Assembly (NCBI GenBank): GCA_041651015.1
Contig: JBAZKA010000004.1
Span: 1,010 to 65,009 of the forward strand
Length of the DNA: 64,000 nucleotides
DNA from: Patescibacteria group bacterium
Lineage (GTDB): Bacteria; Patescibacteriota; Patescibacteriia; Magasanikbacterales; GWA2-37-8
Reading direction: 5' to 3'
Below are positions 1 to 41,925 of the stretch, in pieces. A program made the translations under genes and the position numbers. The notes beneath the pieces are model-generated. The model did no database searches and was not told the DNA's origin. It saw only the letters and a program-made list of their open reading frames with translations. Every line of letters begins with the position of its first letter. Position 1 is the first letter of the stretch.

Positions 1-2000
1 AAGCTCCATTTCCTATTGCAGTTGCGTAATTATGGCTCACCAGTGCAGCATATCCAACTGCAGTACCACCAGTGACGGTTCCGCTTATGTCGGACTCCGA
101 ACCAAGCATTGTATTGTAACTGCCCCCGCTTCCCTGCGCGCCGGCATTATAACCAATGGCAGTATTATTTGAATCTCCATCAAAATATCTCAAGGTATAA
201 ACTCCAATGCCAACATTATTACTACCGGTGACACTCGAGCCTAAAGCGATATAACCCACGCCAACATTATTATTTCCGGTTGTATTATAACGGACGGCAT
301 CGTTACCAACACCAACATTATAATCGCCGGTTGTATTGTCGTGCAACGCCTGATAACCTTGCGCTACGTTGCCAAATCCCGCCGTATTATCGTACAACGC
401 CTCATACCCTACGGCCGTGTTGGAGGATACAGTGTTGTTATAAAGGGATCCGTAGCCAATAGCCGTATTGGCTAAAGATGTGGTACTGATCCGTAACGCA
501 TTGACACCTAAGGCTGTATTATAAGAACCGGTAATATTTTGATATAAGGCAGTCAGGCCGATTGCCGTATTATTTCCGCCTGTCGTGTTGTTATATAATG
601 CATCATAAGCAAGAGCGGTATTATATGCACCCGTGGTATTATTATAAAGAGCCTGATAACCGATTGCCGAATTATACATGCCCGAGGTGTTATTAAATAA
701 CGCTTGATATCCCATAGCAGAATCATACATCCCCGTACCAATTGCTGTAGTACTACCCATCGCCTGATAGCCAAAAGCGGAGTTTCTATAACCAGTAGTA
801 TTTGAATACATCGCCTGATAACCTTGGGCTGTATTCATCACGCCCGTCGTATTACTATATAACGCCTCATAACCAACCGCGGTGTTGGAGGACGCGGTGT
901 TATAGCGAAGAGAATTATAACCTAAGGCGATATTGGCGTTTGAAGAAGTGGCATCATACAAAGAATAATAACCCAAAGCAACATTGCCGTTGCCGATCTG
1001 GTTGCCTTTCAACGCGCCACGACCAATACCGGTGTTGTATGAACCGAGGGTATTATCAAGCATTGCTCCGCGACCCATGGCGGTATTGTTACTACCACTG
1101 CTATTTACATACAAAGCGCCATAACCCACTGCGGTATTGTCATCACTGGAAGTGGCGGTAGCGAGAGCACCAACACCCACGGCAGTATTAAAGCTACCGG
1201 TTTGGTTTAAACTAATGGCGCCGGCGCCCAGGGCTGTGTTGTAATTACCGGTGGTATTGGCATAGAGGGCATTAATGCCATACGCTGAATTGTAACCGCC
1301 GGTTTGGTTTGCATAAAGGGATAGGTAGCCCATGGCAATGTTTCCCACACCCGTCGTATTACTATACAACGCTTGATAGCCTACCGCGGTATTGGAGGCG
1401 ACAATGTTGTTATAAAGCGCCTGGTATCCGATACCGACATTGGCATCACTGGTAGTGTTGGAATACAGAGAATAAGAACCAATGCCAACATTATAATTAC
1501 CCGTAATGTTATCATAGAGGGCGCTATCACCACTAGCGACATTGTAACTGCCGGTTGTATTATTTCTAAGGGGGGCACGACCAATGGCAACATTGCGATC
1601 GCCTGTGGTGTTATAGCGGAGAGAATGCCAACCGCTGGCAATGTTAAAATCGCCGGTGGTATTATCATGCAAAGCATAATAACCATTGGCGACATTATAA
1701 TTACTTGTATTGTTTGCTGTGGTACTGCCCATGGCCATATAACCATTGGCGATGTTGCCAGCACCGGTGGTATTGCTATATAAAGCCTGATAACCAGAGG
1801 CAACGTTGGCATATCCGGTGGTGTTGTTGTATAAAGCCAAAGAACCATTGGCGATGTTGCCATATCCGGTGGAGTTACTATATAGCGCCTGATAACCGGA
1901 GGCGGTGTTACTTGCACCGGTCATGGTCAAATTGCCGGCATTGCCAAAATAATAATTGTTTAAACTGGTGGACGCATAAGCCAAATTCACGCCGTTGTAT
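1..2000 (-). repeat. Degenerate 51-nt (17-codon) tandem coding repeats inside the giant gene
   Basis: Visible periodicity, e.g. 241-400 and 1380-1920. Encodes NTA(V/I)GYQALYSNTTGxY-type units. Confidence 0.6.
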
Positions 2001-28863: not shown

Positions 28864-29003
28864 GGTTCAGATAAAAACGCGCCCAAACAGGCGCCCCGCT
28901 CACGGTTCAATATTACCTTACTCAAAGAGTAAAATCAAGGGAATATATTCATTGATTTATCCCCACATATTTGATAAAATTAACCAATAATAACTCATAC
29001 AAT

Positions 29004-30485
29004 ATGAAAAAATATCTATTAGAAATAATCGTTTTCGTTTGCGGCGCGGTGGTGATGATACTGGAACTCGCGGGCTCCAGAGTGCTCGCGCCATACCTCG
29101 GCACGTCGCTCATCGTCTGGTCCAGTTTGATTGGCCTGATTCTCGGCGCTTTAAGTTTCGGTTATTGGTGGGGTGGGAAAGTCGCGGACATTAATCCAAA
29201 CTGGAAAACATTTTCTGGAATAATTTTTTTGGCCGCTGTTCTTATTGGCATAACGGCGATTTTAAAAGAACCAATTTTGCTTTTGTTTGACGAGATAATT
29301 AATAACATAAAAATAAACTCCGTTCTTTCCACTACCATTCTATTTGTACCGGCGAGTATTATGCTCGGCATGATTTCGCCTTATGCCGTGCGCCTAAAAA
29401 TCAACGACGTACAAAACTCGGGTAAAACCGTGGGTAATTTATATGCAATATCCACTTTGGGCAGTATTTTCGGCACATTTCTCGCGGGATTTTATTTGCT
29501 GGCAACTGTTGGCGCGACCATGATATTATACATTCTTGCCATCACTCTAATTTTTATTTCCATAATTTCATTTTTCAAATCAGATTTAAAAATCAAAGCC
29601 GCCACTATCATCATTCTGATTTGTTTCGGTTCGTTCACCACGGCCATGAATATATTGGCGGCACAAAACGGGACGATTGACACTGACTCAAGTTATCAAC
29701 ACATAAAAATTTTTGACGGAGTAGACGCATCTTCAGGCCGGACCGCGCGCTACTTAAAAACCGAAAATGTCGGTACGCAATCCGGAATGTTTTTGGACAG
29801 CGATGATTTGGTTTTTGGCTACACCAAATTTTATGATTTATACAGATATTTAAAACCAGATGCCAAAAACGCGCTAATGATCGGGGGCGCGGCCTACACA
29901 TATCCCAGATATTTTTTACGCAATACAACCGGGACGACTATGACTGTGGTGGAAATTGACCCAAAAATCACCGAATTGGCCAAAAAATATTTTGGTTTAA
30001 CCGATGACCCGCGAATGAAAATTGTTCATGAAGACGGCCGGGTATTTCTGAACGGCAACACGGAAAAATTTGATATAATTTTCGGCGACGCGTTCAAATC
30101 ACTCACTCCCCCATACCAACTTGCCACCCGAGAAGCCGTAGAAAAAATTTATGAAAATCTAAACGATGACGGAGTCGCGCTCATCAACATAATTTCCGCA
30201 ATAAACGGAGATAAAGGAAAATTTTTGCGCGCTGAATACGCCACCTACCAATCTGTATTCCCCGAGGTGCAAATATTTCCGGTGAGGGAGCCGAATAACG
30301 GCGAAATCGTGCAAAACATCATGCTTGTCGCCTTAAAAAACAAACGCGCCACCTGGAATGGTGGCGACGCTCAAATGCAAATTTTGTTGGATAACCGATG
30401 GACAAAATCTATTGATAACGACTTGCCGATCCTCACTGATGATTTCGCGCCGGTGGACCAATATATGCTCAAGCAGGTTTTCTAA
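29004..30485 (+). CDS. Fused multi-TM / spermidine synthase-like (SpeE-fold methyltransferase) membrane protein
   Basis: Multiple N-terminal TM helices followed by GGAAYTYPRYF...VVEIDPKITELAKKYFGL...DIIFGDAF (spermine/spermidine synthase family signature). Start at MKKYLLEII (ATG 29004). Confidence 0.7.
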   Translation: MKKYLLEIIVFVCGAVVMILELAGSRVLAPYLGTSLIVWSSLIGLILGALSFGYWWGGKVADINPNWKTFSGIIFLAAVLIGITAILKEPILLLFDEIINNIKINSVLSTTILFVPASIMLGMISPYAVRLKINDVQNSGKTVGNLYAISTLGSIFGTFLAGFYLLATVGATMILYILAITLIFISIISFFKSDLKIKAATIIILICFGSFTTAMNILAAQNGTIDTDSSYQHIKIFDGVDASSGRTARYLKTENVGTQSGMFLDSDDLVFGYTKFYDLYRYLKPDAKNALMIGGAAYTYPRYFLRNTTGTTMTVVEIDPKITELAKKYFGLTDDPRMKIVHEDGRVFLNGNTEKFDIIFGDAFKSLTPPYQLATREAVEKIYENLNDDGVALINIISAINGDKGKFLRAEYATYQSVFPEVQIFPVREPNNGEIVQNIMLVALKNKRATWNGGDAQMQILLDNRWTKSIDNDLPILTDDFAPVDQYMLKQVF

Positions 30486-31410
30486 ACTTTCTCCGCAATA
30501 AACATAGTATCCGTCCAACTAAAATAACACAAAACGCGATGATAGCAACGCGCATCCACACATCTAAATTTTTATACCAAACAACTTGGCCGGCCGGTTC
30601 AACACTTTCTATCCGCTCATTACCCGCTTTATCCACGGCCTTAATCAAAATATGGCTCTCTAAATTTTGGTCAGATAATACTAGCGGGCTGCCCACTTCG
30701 CGCCACTTGGCAAATGTTAAACCAATCCGGCTCTTGGCCGATTTTTTTTCATAGCGGTCAATTCCCGAATTCTTGTCTTGAGCCGTAAAAGACAAGAACC
30801 ATCGGTTATCAAAAATTTCAGGCGAACGGTCAATGATCGGAGTAAATGATTCCGGTGGGTCCACGTCCTCCCAAAAATTAACTTCTTGTCCGATGAGTTT
30901 CGGTTGTATACCCACGCCTTCGTTGACAATGAATTCCCACTCAGTTGAACTCACTTCCGTCGGCGTGCCCAAACCATCATTTTTTAAAATTAATAAATCA
31001 GAAAAAATTATTTTACCCGCGCCCGAGGCAACGGCTCTAAATTTAATATCAAATAACTTTCCCTTGGTTCCATAAAACCCGCCGGGCGTTACTCCAGAAA
31101 AAAATATGCCGAAATAATCCGGCGCCGGTTTTCTTACCCACAAATTAATAACCGAACCGCCGTCGCTGATGTCAATTAACTCCAGCGACTTGGGAAAGAA
31201 AACTTTACCCTCAAACGCATTCAAAACTTCTTCGTCGGTATTTAAATACACCGAGACAAATAGCTCATCATCAACCGAAACAGTCGGCGTTTGTGATTCA
31301 AAATATAACTGCGCGCAACGCGCCTCCGGCGTATTAAACGCGAAAATATAAGCGACAACAATCGCCGCGAAAATAAATCTCAAATAAATATTAAAAATTT
31401 TATGCGCCAT
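30469..31410 (-). CDS. Membrane-anchored cohesin-domain protein (scaffoldin-like)
   Basis: N-terminal signal, ~140-aa region LYFESQTPTVSVDDELFVSVYLNTDEEVLNAFEGKVFFPKSLELIDISDGG...GKLFDIKFRAVASGAGKIIFSD that parallels type-I cohesin beta-sandwich signatures, C-terminal TM (VAIIAFCVILVGRILCLL) plus basic tail. Confidence 0.5.
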   Translation of the reverse strand: MAHKIFNIYLRFIFAAIVVAYIFAFNTPEARCAQLYFESQTPTVSVDDELFVSVYLNTDEEVLNAFEGKVFFPKSLELIDISDGGSVINLWVRKPAPDYFGIFFSGVTPGGFYGTKGKLFDIKFRAVASGAGKIIFSDLLILKNDGLGTPTEVSSTEWEFIVNEGVGIQPKLIGQEVNFWEDVDPPESFTPIIDRSPEIFDNRWFLSFTAQDKNSGIDRYEKKSAKSRIGLTFAKWREVGSPLVLSDQNLESHILIKAVDKAGNERIESVEPAGQVVWYKNLDVWMRVAIIAFCVILVGRILCLLRRKFRKPA

Positions 31411-31420
31411 GTAAATTTTA

Positions 31421-32500
31421 TCAGCCGGTCCAATAATAGGCCATTATACTAAAATCCGTTAAATTTATTTTATCATCGGCGTTAAGCTGTTCCGCTTCTT
31501 TTAATATAAAAGTGTTGCTCAATGTTCTTTTGTACCAATAGGCGGCGATGGAAAAATCCACCAAATTCACACGGCAATCGCCATTCAAATCACCCTTAAG
31601 AATTTTACCATCGCACAACTGTTTAGCCACCACGGTTGACGAGCCGATCTTAAAATTAACGATTTTACTAAACGGGCTAACCTGAGTTTTATAAAACGAT
31701 TGGGCTTTCGCAAAATAATCACCCAGTATTAGATCGGTCGTATCCAAAGTATAGGCATACGCGCCGGCCGCGTTGGTCTTGACCTTTACAGAAATTATTT
31801 CTGTGGAACTCACGATAAGGTTTACATCAACCCCGGGCAAGGAGTGGCCGGAAAAATTTATACTTTCCCCCTTTTTCACTTCGCTTTTGTCGGCCCAGAT
31901 GGTCGGAGCAATATATATTCCACTCACGGTAGTCACCACGCCTTCTGTCACATTTAAAGTAATGGTTTGCATGGCGGAACGGAAATCACCGCCATCAACC
32001 GAATACACCCCGAAGACATAGTTGCCCCCGGTTATTTTTAGAACGCTGGCGGAAAAATTTCCGGCGGCATCAGCCATTGTAGTAGTGGCAATTTGTCCAT
32101 CGCGCAAAATTACTACTTGCCCGAATGGATAGGCAATACCCATAAAATTTACTTGGGTGGCGACCGGCACAGTGACAACTCCACCTCCCCCACCACCCCC
32201 GCCACCATGATGCGGGGCGATATATTCACACAACGAGGCATCATAATCACAAGCAATGGTGCAGGATACCGTGCCACTGGTATAACCGAGCGACGCGCAA
32301 CTGCCACCGCCCATATCGGCGCCGTCGCATTGTTCCGGGCCTTCGGCCACGCCATCACCGCAAACAGAAATTTCCACATTAGCATTCACATAAGAATTTG
32401 TGGCAGCGGAAGCTTTTTGGATAATAACAAAACCGCCGACGATCAGTGTGAGCGTCAGCGGCGCGAAAAACAATAAAGTTGAACGCAGTTTCGAATCCAT
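31421..32500 (-). CDS. Secreted Cys-rich-repeat / Ig-like protein with C-terminal dockerin
   Basis: Signal peptide. CGDGVAEGPEQCDGADMGGGSC...C (myxo-type cysteine-rich repeat pattern). Poly-Gly linker. C-terminal GDLNGDCRVNLVDFSIAAYWY ... LNADDKINLTDFSIMAYYW, i.e. two dockerin Ca-binding repeats. Confidence 0.55.
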   Translation of the reverse strand: MDSKLRSTLLFFAPLTLTLIVGGFVIIQKASAATNSYVNANVEISVCGDGVAEGPEQCDGADMGGGSCASLGYTSGTVSCTIACDYDASLCEYIAPHHGGGGGGGGGVVTVPVATQVNFMGIAYPFGQVVILRDGQIATTTMADAAGNFSASVLKITGGNYVFGVYSVDGGDFRSAMQTITLNVTEGVVTTVSGIYIAPTIWADKSEVKKGESINFSGHSLPGVDVNLIVSSTEIISVKVKTNAAGAYAYTLDTTDLILGDYFAKAQSFYKTQVSPFSKIVNFKIGSSTVVAKQLCDGKILKGDLNGDCRVNLVDFSIAAYWYKRTLSNTFILKEAEQLNADDKINLTDFSIMAYYWTG

Positions 32501-32512
32501 TTTTCAATGAAA

Positions 32513-33124
32513 TTATTCCTCTTTTTTCTTTACGCTAATACCGATATTAAACGAAAAGAATTTACGTATAAGCAGTACCACAATGACAAACGCAATCGCT
32601 CCGAGCAAAACCAAACTCCACGGATAATACAATTTGTAAAGCGAGGTCAAGCGATAATAAACTCCCACAAAAAAATTCGCCGGCGCGACGCTAAAATACA
32701 ATTTGGTCGCGGCCGCCACACCAACAGAGGTCTCTCCGGCCACTGATGCTTTCTTGGCCGGGTGTCCTTCAAGATACGCAAAATATTCGCCCGGCTCAGC
32801 GCCTTTTAATGGCAAAGTCAGTCTAACTTGCACTAATTGCGCTTTGCCCGGTTCCAGATAAAATGTTGATGGCTGGAAACTTAACCATTCGCGAGGCGGC
32901 ATTTTTTGCGGTTGAGTGGTGTTGTATTCCACTGAGACACCATACTCTGAGGCTTCGTCGCCGGTATTGATCACGGCAAATGAAGGCAGGTCATAAATTA
33001 GACCGGCTTTCATAGCCTCAGGCACTTCAATCTTTCCCGTGCCCACCCCAACGCCGACGCTGGCCATGGCTGCTATCGGTAGCAATAATATTCCCCCCAC
33101 TATTGCGGCAATATATTTATTCAT
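32513..33124 (-). CDS. Surface protein: signal peptide + beta-sandwich-like domain + C-terminal TM anchor (CscA/DUF916-like architecture)
   Basis: MNKYIAAIVGGILLLPIAAMA signal. C-terminal LVLLGAIAFVIVVLLIRKFF TM with charged tail. Domain assignment by architecture only. Confidence 0.4.
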   Translation of the reverse strand: MNKYIAAIVGGILLLPIAAMASVGVGVGTGKIEVPEAMKAGLIYDLPSFAVINTGDEASEYGVSVEYNTTQPQKMPPREWLSFQPSTFYLEPGKAQLVQVRLTLPLKGAEPGEYFAYLEGHPAKKASVAGETSVGVAAATKLYFSVAPANFFVGVYYRLTSLYKLYYPWSLVLLGAIAFVIVVLLIRKFFSFNIGISVKKKEE

Positions 33125-33167
33125 AGAAGAAAATTCAGAAGTCGTAATAGCGGATTAATTTTTATTA

Positions 33168-33680
33168 TTAGTGAGCGGCGGCAGACACTGTGACCACCAT
33201 TGATTGTTGGGTATAATCTGCCACGGCAGTAGGAGTATTTATCAACAAGTCCATAGACTGCGTCGGAGTGGTCGTAGTCAAATCAGATTTCATATTGGTA
33301 TAAGTGCTGGAATTCATCGCCGTATAATTTGCGGCGCTGGTGCATGTCGTGGTGCAAAATTTATGCACATAAATACTGGAACCGGCCGTTGATGATAAAC
33401 CCCAGTTGCCGGGAGTGGTGGAAGAGCCTCTCACGGTTAAGTCCACTGATACGTTACCGTTGTTGGTGACAGTTTGCGTGTCAATGGTGGTGGTAGTGCT
33501 TTTAATCGTGTTGAGCGCCATCGTGCCGTAAGCCACAGTTCCATCCGTAACAGTTACGGAAATATTTTCCACTGTCACGGTCGCGGCCACATTACCGGTT
33601 GTGGCGGCCCAAACTACTGAGGCGGCCGAGACAGCCGCAAATCCCACAACGAATGCTACCAAGAGAAATGCCTTTTTCAT
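33168..33680 (-). CDS. Small secreted protein homologous to the C-terminus of the adjacent giant protein (WxL-like / TasA-like module)
   Basis: Signal MKKAFLLVAFVVGFAAVSAASVVWAATTGN. VTVTDGTVAYGT...TVTNNGNV...NWGL...YVHKFCTTTC...NYTAM aligns with giant-protein residues ~1440-1590. Confidence 0.55.
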   Translation of the reverse strand: MKKAFLLVAFVVGFAAVSAASVVWAATTGNVAATVTVENISVTVTDGTVAYGTMALNTIKSTTTTIDTQTVTNNGNVSVDLTVRGSSTTPGNWGLSSTAGSSIYVHKFCTTTCTSAANYTAMNSSTYTNMKSDLTTTTPTQSMDLLINTPTAVADYTQQSMVVTVSAAAH

Positions 33681-33889
33681 ATTATTAAAAGATTATTAAT
33701 AATTTATAGTAGTGTTTACAACACTATTTATTTTTGCTTGATAAAAAATTTATTTTCTCCCCTCTAACTACAATTCGCTCCAGTATATTATACACCAATT
33801 TTACGTTTCTAAATACGGCCAGTTATCCACAGGGCTTCGCTACGCTACCTGCCTGCCGGTAGGCAAGCGCCCCGCAAACGCAACTTCGT

Positions 33890-36800
33890 CTATGATTGGG
33901 TCGCGAGCAATGTCACATCCACATCCTGCTCACCATAACAAGTGGAAGCTGAGGGAGCGGTGAGACGTAATTGAAATTGGGTGGTACCATCCGCGGCCAC
34001 ATTGGTATCAATATTTTGGTAGGTGGTAGTCATGGCCGTATAGTTGGTCGGCGGGGACGAACAATCTAAATCCGTGTCATTACAAAACCGATGTACGTAT
34101 TGGTCTGCGCCGTTTGAAGTCGCGAGCGTCCACGTGCATCCCCCGCCCGAACCATCTTGCCCTTTGATGGCAAAATCTTCGGTCACATTACCGTTATTGG
34201 TGATTGTTTGCAAATCGCCAAGGTCAATCGTGCTCACACTGGAATTTTCCGCAATGGTTCCATAGCTCACAACTCCGTCGGAAACAGTGACAGACACAAC
34301 CGGCGTAACGGAATTTACTTCATCGTAATCTTTATCAATCGTAGTTGTGATAGCGTTAAGCGAGGTGGTGCAATAACCCCATTGCCAAAAAGTAAAGGTG
34401 GTTGAGGCACCAGCCGGCAAATCATCCCAACGCCGAACGAAATATATATCATCAGCTTCATTTGTTGATTTAACCGCCACTTGAAGCGGCCATTCAATGG
34501 TGGAACTGACCGGGGAGTGTTGAAAATAATAACCGTAAGTCGCCGGATCATCCTGGTCAAAAATCACACCCATGGCCGCCCAGATACCGGTATCGTAAGT
34601 TGTAAACCATTTTTTGGTTAACGATGACATGGTGATTTGACGTTCTACCGTGCTGCTCGTCGTTTCACCGGCCACCCAACCCTTATCATTAGTATTACGA
34701 TCAGTACCAAGCCATTGCTCGCGACCCCAAACTAACGGATAATCATAAGCTGTGGAACTGGCATTGGTAAAAGTGTAAACATTTTTTAAATAACGTTTAC
34801 TGGCATAAAATGTTTGGTATCGGTATGCGTCAATGCCGGTAGCCAGTTGTTGCGCCCAACCATTGGCTGCGCCATCCGAATGCACCAAAGTGGTGATGGA
34901 ATTATCGTCCTCGCTGACAATGTAATTCGCCCATTCATCTTGTTTCCATTTAATATCGCCGGCATAATATCCGGAACTATCTATCCTTACTGTATCATTC
35001 ACAACGACAGCCGTGCGTTCCATACAATCCAAGTTCACGTCATTGTCACTGCTATTGCGGCAAGACATCTCCACCTGTTCGCCCGCGCCTTCATAGCCGC
35101 CGCCAAACATTGGTGTGTTGATAAACTGATTGGCAAATACTAAGCCATTATAAAATAAACGCTCACCGATATTATATGTATATAAACGATCATAACGCGT
35201 GGCAAACAAATCAGTGTCCGAAGTAAAAGAAAAAGCCACTGTTTTATAAGTCGTACCCATGGAATTATCTTGGATATATAACGTATGATGGCCGCTATCC
35301 CACCACCAACAATCCGTAGTGGAAGCAGCGGTCCCTTCTGAAAGAGCCGTGCCGGCCAAGGACACCGATGTGATATTAATATCACTCGTCGTCGGATGGA
35401 ACGGAAAAGCAATCGCGACATTGGAATAGGTAGCCGCGGCATTGACGGAAAAATCCGCCACTTCGTAATTCCAATGGTCAACGCTCCAAGTGGGATTAAA
35501 CTCGGCGCCATTGCCCATGGCCGCGGTGCTGATGGCATTCCATCGCCGTGTAATATATGTGGTAAAATTTGCCGTGGTCGTTGAATAATCAATTGATGAA
35601 AAATTTGAACTGCTGGATAATTGCAAAGTGGTTCGAAACGTGCCGGTATTTGGATCGGCACAGCCATTGCAAAAATTTGAACCCGGGTAAATTACCCCTT
35701 CATAACGTCCGTCAATGGCATCCCATGTCAAATTTGTGTAAAGATTATCCCCCACGGAATTGGTGGTACTGGCTCGCGCATAAGGATAATCAAGATAACT
35801 CAAGCCATTCAAAGTCATATTGACGGGAATGGCGCCGCTCCAACCATCAGAAGTCTTGCCAATGGAACCGGAAATAGTGGGAAGAGCAAACACGGTGGAA
35901 CCGGAAATTGCGACTGTGCTGGAAGGTCCGGTGGTACCACTGCTCACCGTCACGCCGGTACTGGGATCGGAAATTTGGATTTCCAATGTTTCTCCCAAAG
36001 TAGCACCCGAAGCAACATCCAACACTGTATAAACACACATCGCCGAAGTGGTGCTGATACCGACCGAACCGGAAAATGTTGAAGTGCCATTGGCGGCGCT
36101 AAACCCATCGGTATCAGTGGAGCCAAATTGAGTTTCCGTACCGCCATAACTTTCCGAAGCGCAATCATACGGTGTGGTAGCGTCTAAATCGTAATAAAGT
36201 TTAATGTTATCCAAATCAGTTTGCGCATCCACGGTGCCATTTTCAAAAATACTAATACCGGTGACATTGCGCGAGCCGGCGTTTTCAATAATGGAAAAAT
36301 ATCCGCCGACATAATTATCAGTGGAAGGAATGGTCATGCCCGTGGCTTGACTGCCTCCGGTACCGACAGTGACAGAACTGACCAGAGCGGTGGAACCGGT
36401 AATGGCCACTGCGGACGACGGCCCGACCGCGCCGCTGCTGATCGTCACGGCCGTGCTGGGATTGGTAATTTGAATTTCAATTGTTTGCCCTTCGCCCGCG
36501 CCCGAGCCCACATCCACAACCGCATAAACGCACATGGCTTGGGCCGAGGTCACGGCCACGGTTCCGGAAAATGTTGATGTCCCGTTGCTAGCGCTAAAAC
36601 CATCAGTATCAGTGGAGCCATATTGAGTCTCGGTGCCATTATAACTAACAGATGCGCAATCATAAGGCGTCACTGTATCTAATTCATAATATAATTTGAT
36701 ATTATCTAAATTATTTTGCGCGTCCACGGTGCCGATTTCATTTATGGATATACCGGTGACATTGCGAGAAGTGGCATCGCCGACAATGTAGAAAGCGCCG

Positions 36801-38668
36801 CCGACATAATTATTGGTTGATGAAACGACCATGGTCGCGGTTTGATTGCCAGTGGTTCCAACCGTCACGTTGTTTGAAGAAGCATTATAAGTCGCGTAAA
36901 TGGAATATTTCAAAGCGCCTAGTGTCGGCGAGGTAAACGAGGACGGCCAGGTGCCGTATGTTTGCGTCTTTGACAGACTCTGATTTGTGGCGCCAGTAGT
37001 ATAATAAAAATAATTTTGGCTGTCATTATCATTTTTTAACAACCAATAGGTGGAACTGCTGATAGTCGGCGAGGTTGATAATTTATAGGCATACCAAGCT
37101 TTTGTGGTGCCGACAGCGGTAGACGCCGAATTCGCCACCAAATTATAGCTGGAATTATAGATACCATAACCCGCATAGTAGCCGGAATCCGGATACATAT
37201 AGGCGGTGGTTGTGACGACTGTAGCGCCGGCCGCGCCCGAGCCGGAATCAAATTTTGAACCGACCATTCTTCCATTTATTGACGAAGTATAACTCGTCCC
37301 GGCCGTGGTGTTGCCAAAGGTCGGGTCAACGATTACCGGATAAACCGCCTCATCCAAAAAATATTGCGGCACGGTGATGGTCATTTTTCCGCTAACCTCG
37401 TCAATATTTAATTCGCACCAAGTATATCGTCCGCTCGCGTCAAATGCCTGCGGACGATAAATTGAAAACGCCATGCCGGTGCCATAATTTTTGCCACCCA
37501 TGGCTGAGTAATCTCCTTGCAAACCGCCCTTATAATAAACCGCGTAAGACCCAACCACGTTTATCGGACGATGATATTCATGGCATTCGGTCGGACTGCA
37601 ACTTGGGTCGCTCATTTCCACATTCAAAGGCGGCTGATAGAAAAACTCTAAATTTTCCGTAGCAATATCAAATTCAAAAACATTAGTGCTCGGTTTTGTC
37701 TTTAAAGCAAATTCAAATTCATAACCATCAACATTTTCACTCATCCCGTCGGAATATTTTTCATTCGGGATAGTGACAGTTTTATCATAAAAAATATATT
37801 GACGATGCGATGTTTCATATTTGATAACTTTCTCTTCGCCCAATTCATCTCTGTCAATAAACAATGCTTTCTCGGTGGACACACTTGAATCAGACAATGG
37901 TTCGTTCAGGATAGTGGAAAAATTTGCGAAAATTGCTTCTTCACCCTGAGAGTATTGAGTAATAGATACGACATCTTCACTCGGAGTATTAGTCGGGGTA
38001 TCAACGACAGTTGTGTCGGTTAAAACAGTTTCTTCGCTCAAAACCGTATCCGCCGTAGTAGTAGTGATACCGGAGTCACCAGTGACTGTGTCATCACCGG
38101 TTTCCGGCGTCAAAATAATACCTGAGGATGTCGCGACCTCCGCCTCCACCTTTACACCCAACACTTCGGCCGGCGCTTTTGTCTCTACCAAGGTATTGCC
38201 TGATATTTCCCCCTCAAACTTCGGAATTATTTTCATACTCGCTTCCCCATCCCAGCGTTCAATGGTTATTGCCGGAGAAAACGAATCGCCTTCGGGCGCG
38301 CCGATCTTGTAGGCCACACCGTCAATTTCTTTGGCCGGCAAAACAAAGGCTGATCCTTCCTGGCGATATTTGTCACGCAATGGCGAGGCGGCTAATTTAC
38401 GAGACAAAGAGATTGAATCCATAGCGCTTTCATCCGGAGCAAACAAACTGGCTGTCACAATTCCGACCAAGGAATTATCCTGATACCAAGGTATGTTTGA
38501 TGCAGCCGAACGCGTATCGCTCCACACCGGCCAGCCGTATACAAAAACAGCGATGAATACGCCCAAACAGGCGAAAATAATCGCTTTTTCAAAAAATAAT
38601 TTATTTTTTAGATACGTCAAAAAATTTCGCCGCATAAAAGAACTAAATCCATTTTTATTTTTTCTCAA
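33890..38668 (-). CDS. Giant membrane-anchored surface protein (1592 aa) with internal tandem ~160-aa repeats and a C-terminal WxL-like/TasA-like module
   Basis: N-terminal TM (AIIFACLGVFIAVFVYGW). Ser/Thr/Gly-rich beta-rich sequence. C-terminal ...VSVTVSDGVVSYGTIAENS...TITNNGNV...CTWTLATSNG...YVHRFCNDTDLDC...NYTAM. Start overlaps the stop of the upstream gene (translational coupling). Confidence 0.6.
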   Translation of the reverse strand: MRKNKNGFSSFMRRNFLTYLKNKLFFEKAIIFACLGVFIAVFVYGWPVWSDTRSAASNIPWYQDNSLVGIVTASLFAPDESAMDSISLSRKLAASPLRDKYRQEGSAFVLPAKEIDGVAYKIGAPEGDSFSPAITIERWDGEASMKIIPKFEGEISGNTLVETKAPAEVLGVKVEAEVATSSGIILTPETGDDTVTGDSGITTTTADTVLSEETVLTDTTVVDTPTNTPSEDVVSITQYSQGEEAIFANFSTILNEPLSDSSVSTEKALFIDRDELGEEKVIKYETSHRQYIFYDKTVTIPNEKYSDGMSENVDGYEFEFALKTKPSTNVFEFDIATENLEFFYQPPLNVEMSDPSCSPTECHEYHRPINVVGSYAVYYKGGLQGDYSAMGGKNYGTGMAFSIYRPQAFDASGRYTWCELNIDEVSGKMTITVPQYFLDEAVYPVIVDPTFGNTTAGTSYTSSINGRMVGSKFDSGSGAAGATVVTTTAYMYPDSGYYAGYGIYNSSYNLVANSASTAVGTTKAWYAYKLSTSPTISSSTYWLLKNDNDSQNYFYYTTGATNQSLSKTQTYGTWPSSFTSPTLGALKYSIYATYNASSNNVTVGTTGNQTATMVVSSTNNYVGGAFYIVGDATSRNVTGISINEIGTVDAQNNLDNIKLYYELDTVTPYDCASVSYNGTETQYGSTDTDGFSASNGTSTFSGTVAVTSAQAMCVYAVVDVGSGAGEGQTIEIQITNPSTAVTISSGAVGPSSAVAITGSTALVSSVTVGTGGSQATGMTIPSTDNYVGGYFSIIENAGSRNVTGISIFENGTVDAQTDLDNIKLYYDLDATTPYDCASESYGGTETQFGSTDTDGFSAANGTSTFSGSVGISTTSAMCVYTVLDVASGATLGETLEIQISDPSTGVTVSSGTTGPSSTVAISGSTVFALPTISGSIGKTSDGWSGAIPVNMTLNGLSYLDYPYARASTTNSVGDNLYTNLTWDAIDGRYEGVIYPGSNFCNGCADPNTGTFRTTLQLSSSSNFSSIDYSTTTANFTTYITRRWNAISTAAMGNGAEFNPTWSVDHWNYEVADFSVNAAATYSNVAIAFPFHPTTSDINITSVSLAGTALSEGTAASTTDCWWWDSGHHTLYIQDNSMGTTYKTVAFSFTSDTDLFATRYDRLYTYNIGERLFYNGLVFANQFINTPMFGGGYEGAGEQVEMSCRNSSDNDVNLDCMERTAVVVNDTVRIDSSGYYAGDIKWKQDEWANYIVSEDDNSITTLVHSDGAANGWAQQLATGIDAYRYQTFYASKRYLKNVYTFTNASSTAYDYPLVWGREQWLGTDRNTNDKGWVAGETTSSTVERQITMSSLTKKWFTTYDTGIWAAMGVIFDQDDPATYGYYFQHSPVSSTIEWPLQVAVKSTNEADDIYFVRRWDDLPAGASTTFTFWQWGYCTTSLNAITTTIDKDYDEVNSVTPVVSVTVSDGVVSYGTIAENSSVSTIDLGDLQTITNNGNVTEDFAIKGQDGSGGGCTWTLATSNGADQYVHRFCNDTDLDCSSPPTNYTAMTTTYQNIDTNVAADGTTQFQLRLTAPSASTCYGEQDVDVTLLATQS
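35880..36860 (-). repeat. Two tandem ~480-490-bp coding repeats inside the giant surface gene
   Basis: Protein copies share ...NYVGG(A/Y)F(Y/S)I(V/I)...SRNVTGISI.ENGTVDAQ..LDNIKLYY.LD..TPYDCAS.SY.GTETQ.GSTDTDGFSA.NGTSTFSG... DNA at 35931-36045 vs 36421-36540 and at 36181-36330 vs 36665-36810 is clearly related. Confidence 0.6.
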
Positions 38669-39044
38669 TCTTCTTCGCCATTTTATAAATTTTGCCGGCT
38701 GTGGCCGAAACAGCTCTGTCCACCGCTTCTTTCGCTGATTCAGTATAATCCTCGGATTTATCCTCGGCCCAACTCTTTGCTTTTTTAATGGCCGCGTCTT
38801 TGACCGCCGTGCCCACTCCCTTGAACACCGAATTCATGGCAAAAGAAATCATCTCCACTTTTTCTTGGATAAAACCGATGGCGTCGGCCAAGGATTGCAG
38901 GCGGACGCGAAATTCTTCAATAATTTGGCTGGTATTTTTCAAAATTTTGCCCGCGTAATAAAACATCCAGCATAAAAAAACCGCCACCCAAATAATACAA
39001 AAAGAAATCACGATATACAAAATATCTTTTGATGATTCTATCAT
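38655..39044 (-). CDS. Small membrane protein with N-terminal TM and coiled-coil tail (DUF948-like), first gene of the surface operon
   Basis: LYIVISFCIIWVAVFLCWMFYYAG TM. Lys/Ala-rich helical tail. Stop overlaps the giant gene start. Confidence 0.45.
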   Translation of the reverse strand: MIESSKDILYIVISFCIIWVAVFLCWMFYYAGKILKNTSQIIEEFRVRLQSLADAIGFIQEKVEMISFAMNSVFKGVGTAVKDAAIKKAKSWAEDKSEDYTESAKEAVDRAVSATAGKIYKMAKKIEKK

Positions 39045-39121
39045 AGTTCCTCCGAGTTAATATATAAATTTTTCTACTTTTATATTATACCACGGCAAGA
39101 TGAAATTTGGAACAAGACAAC

Positions 39122-39424
39122 CTAAGCAGTTTCCTTTATCCTAATCTCGCGTCTTCCACTAATAAGACCGAGATTACCTTCTATGGAATTTTGTGAAATA
39201 ATTTCTGGCACTAAACCGTATCTCTGCCCGTTTGTAAGTTCAATGTCAACACTTTTTCCGTCAACATTGTGGAATGTTTTGCAAATACCCTCGCCATCTG
39301 TCAACGCTCTGTTGCCTGTACTTGTAATCACAACTGTCTTACCCTCAAATATTTGAGTCAAATGTTCGACCACCTCATCGGTGACCTTATTTTCTACTCC
39401 AACATCCATGTGACTTTCTTTCAT
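39122..39424 (-). CDS. Hypothetical 100-aa protein
   Basis: Clean ORF upstream of the surface operon promoter region. No family recognised. Confidence 0.4.
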   Translation of the reverse strand: MKESHMDVGVENKVTDEVVEHLTQIFEGKTVVITSTGNRALTDGEGICKTFHNVDGKSVDIELTNGQRYGLVPEIISQNSIEGNLGLISGRREIRIKETA

Positions 39425-39465
39425 ATAATTTGGACTAATAAATAATTAAAATTCAAAAATTTTAT

Positions 39466-41925
39466 TTATCCCCTAACTTCGGCACCCAAAACCTTGAGCG
39501 CCTTATTCACTTTTGCCATTACTTCGTCAATTTCCGAAGTATTCAACGTGCGCTCGGCGTGCGCGAGAGTCAGGCGATAAGCCAAACTTTTTTTGTCCGC
39601 GCTAATTTTTTCTCCCTCATAGACATCAAACAATTCCGCGTTCTTTATCAAAGCATCCGCGCCTTGAATGGCGGATATAATTTTTTCATGAGCGACGCTT
39701 TTGTCCGCCGTGAACGCAATGTCGCGCGTCACTTCCGGAAACAACGGCAACTTTTGATACGCAAGGGGTTCAGCCTCTTTTCTCGCCTCATCAAGCGCGT
39801 CAATATTTAATTCTAAAATCGCGGTCCGGACAGATAAATTAAAATTAGCGGACACGGACGGTTCAACTTCATAAATTGCGCCAACGACTTTGTCATCAAT
39901 TTTTATTTCGCCCGAACGAGTCGGATGCTGCCATGATTTTGTTTCGGATTTTTTAATTACAAAAGTTAAGCTCAATTCCTCGCAAATTCTTTCCAATACG
40001 GCCAGCGCCGAATTATACGGTTTATCGTTTTTCTTTTCTGCCGCCACAAACGTTAAATAATTTTCCTGCCGCGGCAACAACTCCGAACCATTCAAATTAG
40101 CTCTGACGCCGGCCAGTTCGGGGGTGAAAATTTTTCCAATTTCAAAAATTTTAATCGCGTCAAAATACTCAATATTCTTCACAACGTTTTCCAGTAAATT
40201 CGGCAAAAGAGAACGGCGCAAAAGCGGTTTTTCCTTAGAGAGCGGATTATCCAGCTCCAGATACTCGGCGCCGTCTCTCATTTTTTCTTTTTGTTCTCGG
40301 CTAACAAAAGAATAGTTGTAAATTTCCGAGGCGCGCATATCCCGCACCAAAACGTCACGGAGCAAATGTTCCAACGCGCGAATATTGTTTGTCGCAGGCG
40401 GGGCGATGGACATATCCGGCAAAGCCGATTTTAAATTTTCATAACCGTAAATTCTGGCCACTTCCTCCACCAAATCCTCAGCCATGCTCACATCTTTGGT
40501 AGCGCGCCAAGTCGGAATTTTGACCGACCATTTGTCGCCCTTGTCCGAGAGTTCAAAACCTAATTGAGCCAAAATTTTTACAATTTGTTTGGCTGGAATT
40601 TCTTCGCCTAATTTTTTGGCAAAAATGTTTTTTTCAATGCTGATCGGCCCGGTGGCAACGGTAAAGTGCTTTTCATCAACCAGCGCTTCAACTTTAGCGG
40701 AACGACAAGTTTCCCCTAATAATTCCACGGCTTTGTTCAACGCGTCATTACATAAGTTCGGGTCCAAACTTTTTTCAAAACGCGCCGATGAATCCGTGCG
40801 CAAGCTGTGGCGAATAGAGCTCTTACGGATGGATGAAGCATTAAAGGTCGCGGCCTCAAAAATTATTGTTTCGGTTTTATCGTTAATACCGCTATATTCC
40901 CCGCCCATGATACCGGCCAAAGCCAACGGTTTTTCGCTATCGGCAATAACCAAATCTTCTACTGATAATTCAATTTTATTTCCGTCAAGCAAAGTAAGAA
41001 ATTCACCCGGCTCGGCTTTTCTCACAATTATGCTTGTCAGTTGCTTATTGTTGACGGCCAATTGCTTTGCGTCAAATGCGTGCATGGGCTCGCCCAAATC
41101 CACCATCACGTAATTGGTGATATCCACGACATTATTTATCGGACGAATTCCAACCGCAGACAAACGTGCTTTCAGCCAATCCGGCGACTCGCCAATTTTT
41201 ATTCCGGATACAACCACGGCCATATAGCGCGGGCATAAATTTTTATCTTTTATTTCCACGGCCAAAGATACTGCGGATTTTTTGGCCGGCTTAATCGGTT
41301 TGGTCTTGTAATCCTTGATATTTTTGCCAAACAAAACCGCGACTTCGCGCGCAATTCCGTAATGACCCCACAAATCCGGACGATTACTGAGGGATTTATT
41401 ATCAATTTCCAAAATCGCGTCATCTAAATTCAAAATCTCGGCCAAGGGCTTGCCCACGGTCTCTTCCGCCACCACATCGGTCAAATCCACAATCTCGTGG
41501 TCGTCCTTGGGCGGAAACATTTCAGCGAGTCCAATTTCACTCGCCCCGCAAATCATACCAAATGACTCCACGTTTCTGATTTTGGCCGGCTCAAGCGTGA
41601 TTGGTTCGCCTTCGCCGTGCCATTTAACTTTGGCCCCGACTTTGGCCAAAGCCACCAGCATCCCCTCCCGCACATTGGAACCGCCGCAGACAATTTGTAA
41701 TCTTTCATTGCCGACACTCACTTGGCATAATTTTAATTTGTCCGCTTGCGGATGTTTCTCGGCCGACACAACCTTGCCCACCACCACATTGCCAAGCAGC
41801 GCGCCGGCATGTTCAATTCCCTCCACTTCCACCGTGGATAATTTTAATTTTTCCGCCACTTCTTCGGCGCTGACCGAATCCGGCAAATTCACATATTGTT
41901 TGAGCCAATTGAAGGAAATGTTCAT
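39466..41925 (-). CDS. pheT: Phenylalanine--tRNA ligase beta subunit
   Basis: 819 aa. tRNA-binding N-domain, B3/B4, B5, class II-like core, FDX-ACB C-terminal domain. Adjacent to pheS. Confidence 0.95.
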   Translation of the reverse strand: MNISFNWLKQYVNLPDSVSAEEVAEKLKLSTVEVEGIEHAGALLGNVVVGKVVSAEKHPQADKLKLCQVSVGNERLQIVCGGSNVREGMLVALAKVGAKVKWHGEGEPITLEPAKIRNVESFGMICGASEIGLAEMFPPKDDHEIVDLTDVVAEETVGKPLAEILNLDDAILEIDNKSLSNRPDLWGHYGIAREVAVLFGKNIKDYKTKPIKPAKKSAVSLAVEIKDKNLCPRYMAVVVSGIKIGESPDWLKARLSAVGIRPINNVVDITNYVMVDLGEPMHAFDAKQLAVNNKQLTSIIVRKAEPGEFLTLLDGNKIELSVEDLVIADSEKPLALAGIMGGEYSGINDKTETIIFEAATFNASSIRKSSIRHSLRTDSSARFEKSLDPNLCNDALNKAVELLGETCRSAKVEALVDEKHFTVATGPISIEKNIFAKKLGEEIPAKQIVKILAQLGFELSDKGDKWSVKIPTWRATKDVSMAEDLVEEVARIYGYENLKSALPDMSIAPPATNNIRALEHLLRDVLVRDMRASEIYNYSFVSREQKEKMRDGAEYLELDNPLSKEKPLLRRSLLPNLLENVVKNIEYFDAIKIFEIGKIFTPELAGVRANLNGSELLPRQENYLTFVAAEKKNDKPYNSALAVLERICEELSLTFVIKKSETKSWQHPTRSGEIKIDDKVVGAIYEVEPSVSANFNLSVRTAILELNIDALDEARKEAEPLAYQKLPLFPEVTRDIAFTADKSVAHEKIISAIQGADALIKNAELFDVYEGEKISADKKSLAYRLTLAHAERTLNTSEIDEVMAKVNKALKVLGAEVRG

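Follow-up and report, generated by a model that had tools for sequence, protein, structure and literature searches.

Whether two adjacent genes of a Patescibacteria group bacterium encode the partners of a dedicated docking interaction at the cell surface is the question raised by a 64-kb stretch of contig JBAZKA010000004.1 (positions 1010-65009; assembly GCA_041651015.1), hereafter the window. The first gene, at 31421-32500 of the window, had been predicted to encode a Cys-rich and Ig-like secreted protein ending in two dockerin-type Ca-binding repeats, and the second, at 30469-31410 and here called cohA, a membrane-anchored protein with a cohesin-like β-sandwich, the two forming a non-cellulosomal cohesin-dockerin pair in a minimal genome. 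Open reading frames (ORFs) are found at exactly these coordinates, 10 nt apart, in what is indeed a metagenome-assembled genome (MAG) of the Patescibacteria, and NCBI holds exact copies of both products as ‘hypothetical protein’ (WC457_03850 and WC457_03855, from a Patescibacteria group MAG). As detailed in the following, the two genes probably encode a surface tether of the cohesin-dockerin type operating outside any cellulosome.

The C-terminus of the secreted protein consists of two tandem repeats of approximately 22 residues, in which the segments originally singled out lie at aa 303-323 and 339-357; each repeat fits the type I pattern of a 12-residue Ca-binding loop (D or N at loop positions 1, 3, 5, 9 and 12, apart from position 1 of repeat 2) with a predicted helix after it. 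The two repeats are identical at 11 of 22 positions, and internal symmetry in characterized type I dockerins goes with a dual binding mode (e.g. 2ccl and 2vn5). In a phmmer search of the PDB sequences, solved dockerins account for nine of the 12 matches, the best being 2y3n_B (E 7e-5) and 2yik (E 3.7e-4), each with both repeats aligned, followed by 5nrm, 5nrk, 2mte, 1daq, 4fl4, 2vn5 and 2ccl, and nine solved dockerins are also matched by the profile of the protein family. The latter comprises more than 1300 homologs of a uniform length of about 350 aa and one shared layout, which are approximately 45-50% identical across classes, and some of which are already annotated by NCBI as ‘dockerin type I repeat-containing’; Pfam Dockerin_1 (PF00404) is matched by 57 of 62 members at E up to 0.01 (best E 4.6e-9). 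Among 120 homologs, conservation reaches 97-100% at D304, N306, D308, N312 and D315 of the first Ca loop and at N340, D342, D/N346 (N346 here) and D349 of the second, and the helices DFSIAAYWYKR and DFSIMAYYWTG are likewise conserved. The two repeats of the original prediction are borne out by solved dockerins, by the family and by the Ca loops.

The part of the protein that precedes the dockerin is Cys-rich and Ig-like, as had been supposed. The Cys-rich module contains six invariant Cys within the pattern CG[ND]G..E.CDG....C...G[YF].GGTL.C...C.[FY][ND]TS.C (120 homologs), and one homolog matches DUF4215 weakly in this module (E 2.6e-3). Of 62 homologs, 59 match Big_6, with E values down to 4.1e-12, and the family profile also matches the Bap Ig repeats in 7dm0; the window protein alone gives weak CarboxypepD_reg and Big_6 matches and nothing stronger for its Ig part. 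The Gly run that separates the Cys-rich from the Ig modules is kept in the family, with G102-G106 present in at least 90% of homologs, and is presumably a flexible hinge.

For cohA, the evidence comes from the fold and from the family. The AlphaFold2 model, built on 58 sequences, has a pLDDT of 92.6 and comprises an N-terminal helix (aa 2-25), a β-sandwich (aa 33-163), a second β domain (aa 192-270) and a C-terminal helix (aa 282-308). The sandwich, as modelled, is a nine-strand jelly-roll of approximately 140 aa that superposes on solved cohesins, i.e. the strand number that a cohesin should have is present. When the model was compared with the PDB by Foldseek, nearly all of the top 50 matches were cohesins, with target TM-scores of 0.65-0.78. 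The best match, which spans both cohA domains, is 2w1n (the cohesin and FN3 modules of Clostridium perfringens GH84C; E 7.5e-10); the non-cellulosomal cohesin of Archaeoglobus fulgidus, 2xdh, follows the fold with a target TM-score of 0.78 (E 2.8e-7), and OlpC (4dh2), OlpA (3ul4) and ScaE (2zf9) are also among the matches. At the sequence level, the top four PDB matches of the cohA-family profile are cohesins (best E 3e-3), cohesins of Ruminococcus flavefaciens being among the matches, and 16 of 58 cohA homologs match Pfam Cohesin at E up to 0.1 (best 1.7e-5). The 90 homologs are all from Patescibacteria, and several bear the NCBI name ‘cohesin domain-containing protein’. A weak match to the NCBIfam OmpL47-type domain (E 3.8e-4) concerns the second, Ig/FN3-like module. 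Residues that are invariant in the family (N64, W91, P95, F104, G106, P109-G111 and D145-G148) map, by the strand order of the model, to strands 3, 5 and 6 and to the loop after strand 8. The dockerin-binding face of type I complexes of known structure is made of these strands; this is suggestive of the invariant residues lying on the presumed docking surface of cohA, as far as strand order can tell.

Both proteins begin with a signal-like segment, and a C-terminal transmembrane helix is present in cohA and not in the dockerin protein, in agreement with the membrane anchor that had been proposed for the former. The hydrophobic window of cohA covers aa 281-307, and, since the helix ends in the basic tail RRKFRKPA, the cohesin is expected to be outside the cell. 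When the window was scanned with family-specific hidden Markov models (HMMs), a single ORF was matched for the cohesin and a single one for the dockerin, the cohesin model scoring 147 bits on cohA and the dockerin model 101 bits on its neighbour.

How general this arrangement is was assessed in 80 loci encoding cohA relatives, taken from one-genome-per-species GTDB contigs and in which five protein families were mapped by jackhmmer; the adjacency counts rest on the 68 loci with enough upstream sequence. The dockerin gene is immediately upstream of cohA in 57 of these 68 loci; nine further loci have it upstream within the cluster, with another cohesin paralog or an inserted gene in between, so that both genes occur in one cluster in 66 of 68. 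Most related loci have, immediately before the dockerin gene, a gene for a protein resembling p203, the product of the next gene of the window. The genomes sampled span many candidate classes (Nomura-, Kaiser-, Yanofsky-, Wolfe-, Campbell-, Harrison-, Portnoy-, Komeili-, Falkow- and Azambacteria), and include the co-cultured Ca. Microsyncoccus archaeolyticus.

The modular variants of the cluster are also informative. Nomurabacteria-like genomes contain in it proteins of approximately 250 aa with an N-terminal cohesin and a C-terminal dockerin; the one in locus L066 matches Pfam Cohesin with 25.7 bits and Dockerin_1 with 24.8 bits, and those in L081 and L076 match Dockerin_1 with 25-30 bits. 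Judging from their domain order, these have the layout of an adaptor, similar to a scaffoldin. In several other loci the dockerin is kept at the same position and the cargo is exchanged for a different one (420-520 aa). Both kinds of variant, as read from the sequences, are what a genuine cohesin-dockerin system would be expected to show. Support for a cognate pair is added by the phylum-wide adjacency, by the single cohesin ORF and single dockerin ORF of the window, by the adaptors and by the cargo swaps.

Taken together, domains, topology and conserved linkage make docking of the dockerin protein onto cohA likely. In the proposed arrangement, cohA would be exported and stay anchored through its C-terminal helix in the cytoplasmic membrane, so that the basic tail faces the cytoplasm and the Ig/FN3-like stalk and the distal cohesin lie outside the cell. 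The dockerin protein, secreted after cleavage between ASA and AT, would plug its type-I-like dockerin (two Ca-binding loops and two near-symmetric helices) into the cohesin of cohA, presumably in a Ca-dependent manner, and docking would expose its Cys-rich module and both Ig-like modules at the cell surface. Dockerin gene and cohA represent the conserved core of a Patescibacteria-wide surface cluster, in which the gene order is p203-like protein, dockerin protein, cohA and, usually, a second cohesin-bearing protein, cohB; genes for a large protein of adhesin-like and a small one of pilin-like character often come before it. Most likely, the role of such a system is in cell-surface architecture or attachment rather than in polysaccharide degradation.

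Table 1. Coordinates of the genes, modules and related features (nucleotide positions refer to the window unless a locus is given; residues refer to the encoded protein).
Feature	Nucleotides	Residues	Strand	Remarks
Giant secreted protein gene	33890-38668	1592 aa	-	N-terminal hydrophobic segment
Tandem repeats of giant protein	35888-36862	603-931	-	two of ~165 aa, 68% identical, no Pfam match
p170-like domain of giant protein	33893-34300	1457-1591 (~135 aa)	-	without N-terminal stretch
p170 gene	33168-33680	170 aa	-	secreted Ig-like/pilin-like protein
p203 gene	32513-33124	203 aa	-	signal peptide, Ig-like domain, C-terminal transmembrane helix
Dockerin protein gene	31421-32500	359 aa	-	secreted
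Signal peptide of dockerin protein		1-33		predicted cleavage between ...ASA and AT; hydrophobic segment aa 7-28
Cys-rich module	32228-32362	47-91	-	six invariant Cys, from columns among 120 homologs
Gly9 run	32180-32206	99-107	-	between Cys-rich and Ig modules
Two Ig-like (Big_6-type) modules	31631-32173	about 110-290	-	from Pfam matches of homologs
Dockerin	31424-31603	300-359	-	two 22-residue repeats: DLNGDCRVNLVDFSIAAYWYKR (repeat 1), QLNADDKINLTDFSIMAYYWTG (repeat 2)
cohA gene	30469-31410	313 aa	-	membrane-anchored cohesin protein
Cohesin module	30916-31320	about 31-165	-	nine-strand β-sandwich (model, Foldseek, family profile)
Ig/FN3-like module	30595-30843	about 190-272	-	motifs DK.SGI..YE and KAVDKAGNE conserved
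C-terminal transmembrane helix	30487-30570	281-308	-	basic tail RRKFRKPA after helix
Cohesin+dockerin proteins of related loci	L066:11741-12502; L081:13490-14257; L076:13441-14202; L044:5661-6398	~250 aa		from Pfam
Small ORFs at the dockerin-cohA junction of related loci	L016:9571-9945; L031:3994-4374; L053:7099-7482; L001:7631-8029			

Several observations weigh against this reading and have to be set beside the evidence given above. The Pfam scores, by which the original prediction was to be judged, fail for the window proteins themselves: cohA has no match to Pfam Cohesin (PF00963; gathering threshold 24.1 bits) at E up to 1, nor any to PDB sequences or to Pfam in general, and the dockerin protein matches Dockerin_1 over profile positions 1-53 of 57 with 19.3 bits (E 1.3e-3), short of the gathering score of 22.9. 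The identity of the two domains is supported instead by the fold, by PDB matches and by the families. The second Ca loop varies at its position 1, which is Q338 here and R, D or K elsewhere. Moreover, a second and larger cohA paralog, cohB (approximately 600 aa), follows cohA in 68 of 70 other loci (e.g. L001:8924-10693); besides its cohesin it has additional Ig modules, Big_13 among them, and a transmembrane helix, and it ends in a coiled-coil tail on the cytoplasmic side; where it adjoins, cohA need not be the sole or the main partner of the dockerin. The count of one cohesin and one dockerin covers the 64 kb of the window, on a contig that is 255 kb or longer. Finally, in a mirror-tree comparison, dockerin and cohesin distances correlate with r 0.33, which falls to a partial r of 0.11, reached by 123 of 2000 permutations and not significant, in a partial Mantel test in which the dockerin protein's Ig modules served to control for shared phylogeny. 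Thus, there is no signal of co-evolution beyond shared descent; little covariation could be expected, since the dockerin helices are almost invariant.

The presence of cohB and, in some loci, of a third cohesin-bearing protein, the 64-kb reach of the count and the lack of co-evolution beyond phylogeny would fit an alternative in which the domains are real without being mutual partners, the dockerin binding another cohesin (of the cohB type or on an unlinked anchor), or cohA receiving dockerin proteins encoded at other sites, and the adjacency reflecting no more than co-regulation of surface genes. Direct adjacency is, however, maintained across very divergent genomes, and cohB is absent from the window and from its closest relatives (loci L083-L085, 54% and 69% identity), which retain the dockerin gene and cohA. 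In L083-L085 the place next to cohA is taken by dnaE/fpg, and in the window by the convergent gene of a spermidine-synthase-like membrane protein. As both the window and its closest relatives are devoid of cohB, cohA is the only adjacent socket in this lineage, and the persistence of one cohesin anchor beside the dockerin gene strengthens the idea of a cognate pair. Non-partnership is considered unlikely.

A few apparent peculiarities of these loci found simpler explanations. An insertion in the cohesin gene, suggested by tblastn spans of approximately 1.3-1.4 kb, is due to the adjacent paralog cohB, and the association between dockerin class and cohesin insertion (29+10 loci versus 3) is confounded by phylogeny. 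Fusions of cohA with PDDEXK_3 or 23S_rRNA_IVP (P0030, P0034 and P0053) are gene-caller joins of small ORFs. Such ORFs are a recurrent sight at the dockerin-cohA junction, which repeatedly holds one of them, of a family that differs from genome to genome (23S_rRNA_IVP/bAvd-like, GIY-YIG or PDDEXK_3), and this short junction gives the impression of a place where small selfish ORFs insert time and again. In six Nomurabacteria-like loci (L060, L066, L076, L078, L079 and L081) a secreted protein of approximately 380 aa and with no Pfam match is encoded between the dockerin gene and cohA (e.g. L081:8662-9831); its N-terminus is conserved (...AANVTSxSDTLSDSxP...NHTIxFTTPTG).

In their genomic context, dockerin gene and cohA form the tail of a larger conserved surface cluster of five to six genes, which the original prediction overlooked. 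In the window, five closely packed minus-strand ORFs span 30469-38668 and encode a giant protein, p170, p203, the dockerin protein and cohA. The 3' part of cohA shares 17 nt with the 3' end of the convergent gene at 28971-30485, whose product is a membrane protein with a spermidine-synthase domain, and housekeeping genes flank the cluster, i.e. dnaE and fpg downstream and pheST and an M50 protease gene upstream. Promoter and terminator scans of 30000-39600 gave counts at chance level and yielded no operon boundaries. The giant protein, p170 and p203 have no significant match in Pfam, NCBIfam or PDB sequence searches; the homolog of the giant protein in L001 carries DUF2341.

The composition of the cluster brings in a second alternative, namely that the whole of it builds one appendage, with the giant protein as tip adhesin, p170 as a shaft polymerized by donor-strand exchange and p203 as membrane-bound base or chaperone, the dockerin protein and its cohesin coupling or cross-linking the fibre to the membrane. 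The model of p170 (pLDDT 91.3) resembles donor-strand pilins and TasA, with weak similarity scores, and its most conserved stretch is N-terminal (aa 31-44, VAATVTVENISVTV) and unstructured in the monomer model. In all 13 loci with p170, the large upstream protein, of 330-1650 aa and variable in its N-terminal part, ends in a p170-like domain, as detected by the p170 HMM at the extreme C-terminus; for 10 of these proteins the matched region starts only at HMM position 37-41, so that the conserved N-terminal stretch is missing, as in FimH or PapG. Two-domain tip adhesins of donor-strand-exchange pili are laid out in this way. As for p203, which might be a base subunit or a chaperone, GVGVGxGKI is invariant at its predicted mature N-terminus and NTGDE and PGDYF are further motifs; its fold is Ig-like, with hints of PapD, a transmembrane helix anchors it, and its homologs match weakly fn3_5 (7/12), NPCBM_assoc (NEW3; 5/12) and PapD_N (1/12). 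The conserved gene order also agrees with a common structure. On the other hand, p170 is detected in just 13 of 82 loci, p170 and p203 homologs have no significant match to the TasA, usher or chaperone families of Pfam, no usher, SipW or TapA homolog was detected, and no physical link connects the dockerin protein with p170. An appendage comprising all the cluster products is an unlikely proposition and, for now, no more than an idea. It is equally tentative to regard the pair as the membrane-coupling device of an unrecognized Patescibacteria organelle, a donor-strand fibre assembled without usher or sortase; in that case the very conserved dockerin protein might, as a conjecture of no greater probability, link or organize the fibre on cohA and cohB.

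Two further observations concern this upstream part of the cluster. An analogy with the WxL/csc surface-complex clusters of Firmicutes, suggested by the invariant W-x-L of p170 and by the C-terminal transmembrane helix of p203, was abandoned, as 11 p170 and 12 p203 homologs gave no WxL, DUF916 or DUF3324 match at E up to 1. In locus L019 a block formed by the large p170-like protein, p170, p203 and the dockerin protein occurs twice on one contig (L019:31-4150 and L019:5520-9975) with identical scores, owing either to a recent duplication of 5.5 kb or to an artefact of assembly.

That the modules do not serve docking at all, the dockerin-like one being a Ca-binding stabilizer or a glycan or wall binder and the cohesin-like one a spacer or a ligand-binding domain, is a still less probable alternative. 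The sub-threshold Pfam scores of the window proteins would accord with it, as would the fact that EF-hand models also match related dockerins; in the general literature, many non-cellulosomal dockerins are without a known partner. However, the nearest folds are specifically cohesins and the nearest sequences specifically dockerins, the two modules are strictly co-localized, and adaptors in which they are fused exist. Lastly, a miniature cellulosome or an amylosome-like polysaccharide-degrading complex, of which cohesin and dockerin are the hallmark modules, is very improbable and was rejected for this cluster, as neither glycoside hydrolases nor carbohydrate-binding modules nor domains of any other carbohydrate-active enzyme were found in the five cluster proteins or in the flanks (in line with the non-cellulosomal setting that had been predicted), each anchor carries a single cohesin with no multi-cohesin scaffoldin in sight, and the cargo is Cys-rich and Ig-like.

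The preferred reading, a cohesin-dockerin tether, can be compared with known systems. Among the closest are OlpA and OlpC of Clostridium thermocellum, with type I dockerin partners, in which one cohesin on a cell-bound protein captures a single dockerin protein directly at the surface, and which resemble cohA in fold (target TM-scores of about 0.70, at an identity of just 12-13%). OlpA and OlpC are anchored to the wall by SLH repeats and receive enzymes, whereas the anchor of cohA is a C-terminal transmembrane helix and the cargo is non-enzymatic. The best structural matches, A. fulgidus 2xdh and C. perfringens 2w1n, 2vo8 and 2jh2, share with the tether a use outside cellulose degradation; the C. 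perfringens modules, however, sit on secreted glycoside hydrolase toxins, while here two small dedicated proteins are encoded side by side and conserved phylum-wide. The cell-bound single cohesin ScaE of R. flavefaciens tethers the non-enzymatic dockerin protein CttA, and the sca genes are clustered. In that case the cohesin is attached by sortase, and CttA is a cellulose binder with an X-dockerin, unlike the transmembrane anchor and the plain two-repeat dockerin found here. For the p170 and giant-protein genes only, a likeness exists with donor-strand fibres (chaperone-usher pili, TasA and archaeal bundling pili), which also have an Ig- or jelly-roll-like subunit with an N-terminal extension, and in which the large protein encoded upstream would find its counterpart by ending in a subunit-like domain without the extension; p170 differs by having no significant sequence match to these families and weak similarity scores.

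Within the Patescibacteria, an essential dockerin-domain protein is known in Southlakia epibionticum (SEML1_0315; PMC10633639); being a stand-alone protein of 927 aa with different neighbours, it was discarded as an ortholog of the dockerin protein described here. In full-text searches of the searchable literature on cohesin or dockerin in Patescibacteria, the candidate phyla radiation (CPR), Parcubacteria or Saccharibacteria, neither the conserved pair nor the cluster was found to be described. Non-cellulosomal cohesins and dockerins, single-cohesin anchors and the database names of some of the homologs are established knowledge; what is added here is the transmembrane anchor, the non-enzymatic cargo, the neighbouring genes and the conservation across a phylum of reduced genomes.

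Little is known of how the Patescibacteria (CPR) build their surface and attach to their hosts, and the majority of their surface proteins have no annotation. Inside an otherwise hypothetical gene cluster, the pair represents a simple and testable protein-protein module, with one or two membrane cohesin anchors beside the dockerin gene in almost every genome examined. If the organelle described above did exist, it would be the first instance in which a pilus-like structure for attachment is built or anchored by cohesin-dockerin docking, and these episymbionts might even make contact with their hosts by means of it. Should docking take place as proposed, the cohesin-dockerin theme would be extended to a transmembrane-anchored and enzyme-free setting in reduced genomes, and recombinant modules, or antibodies against them, would provide handles for locating and perturbing a conserved surface complex of these organisms.

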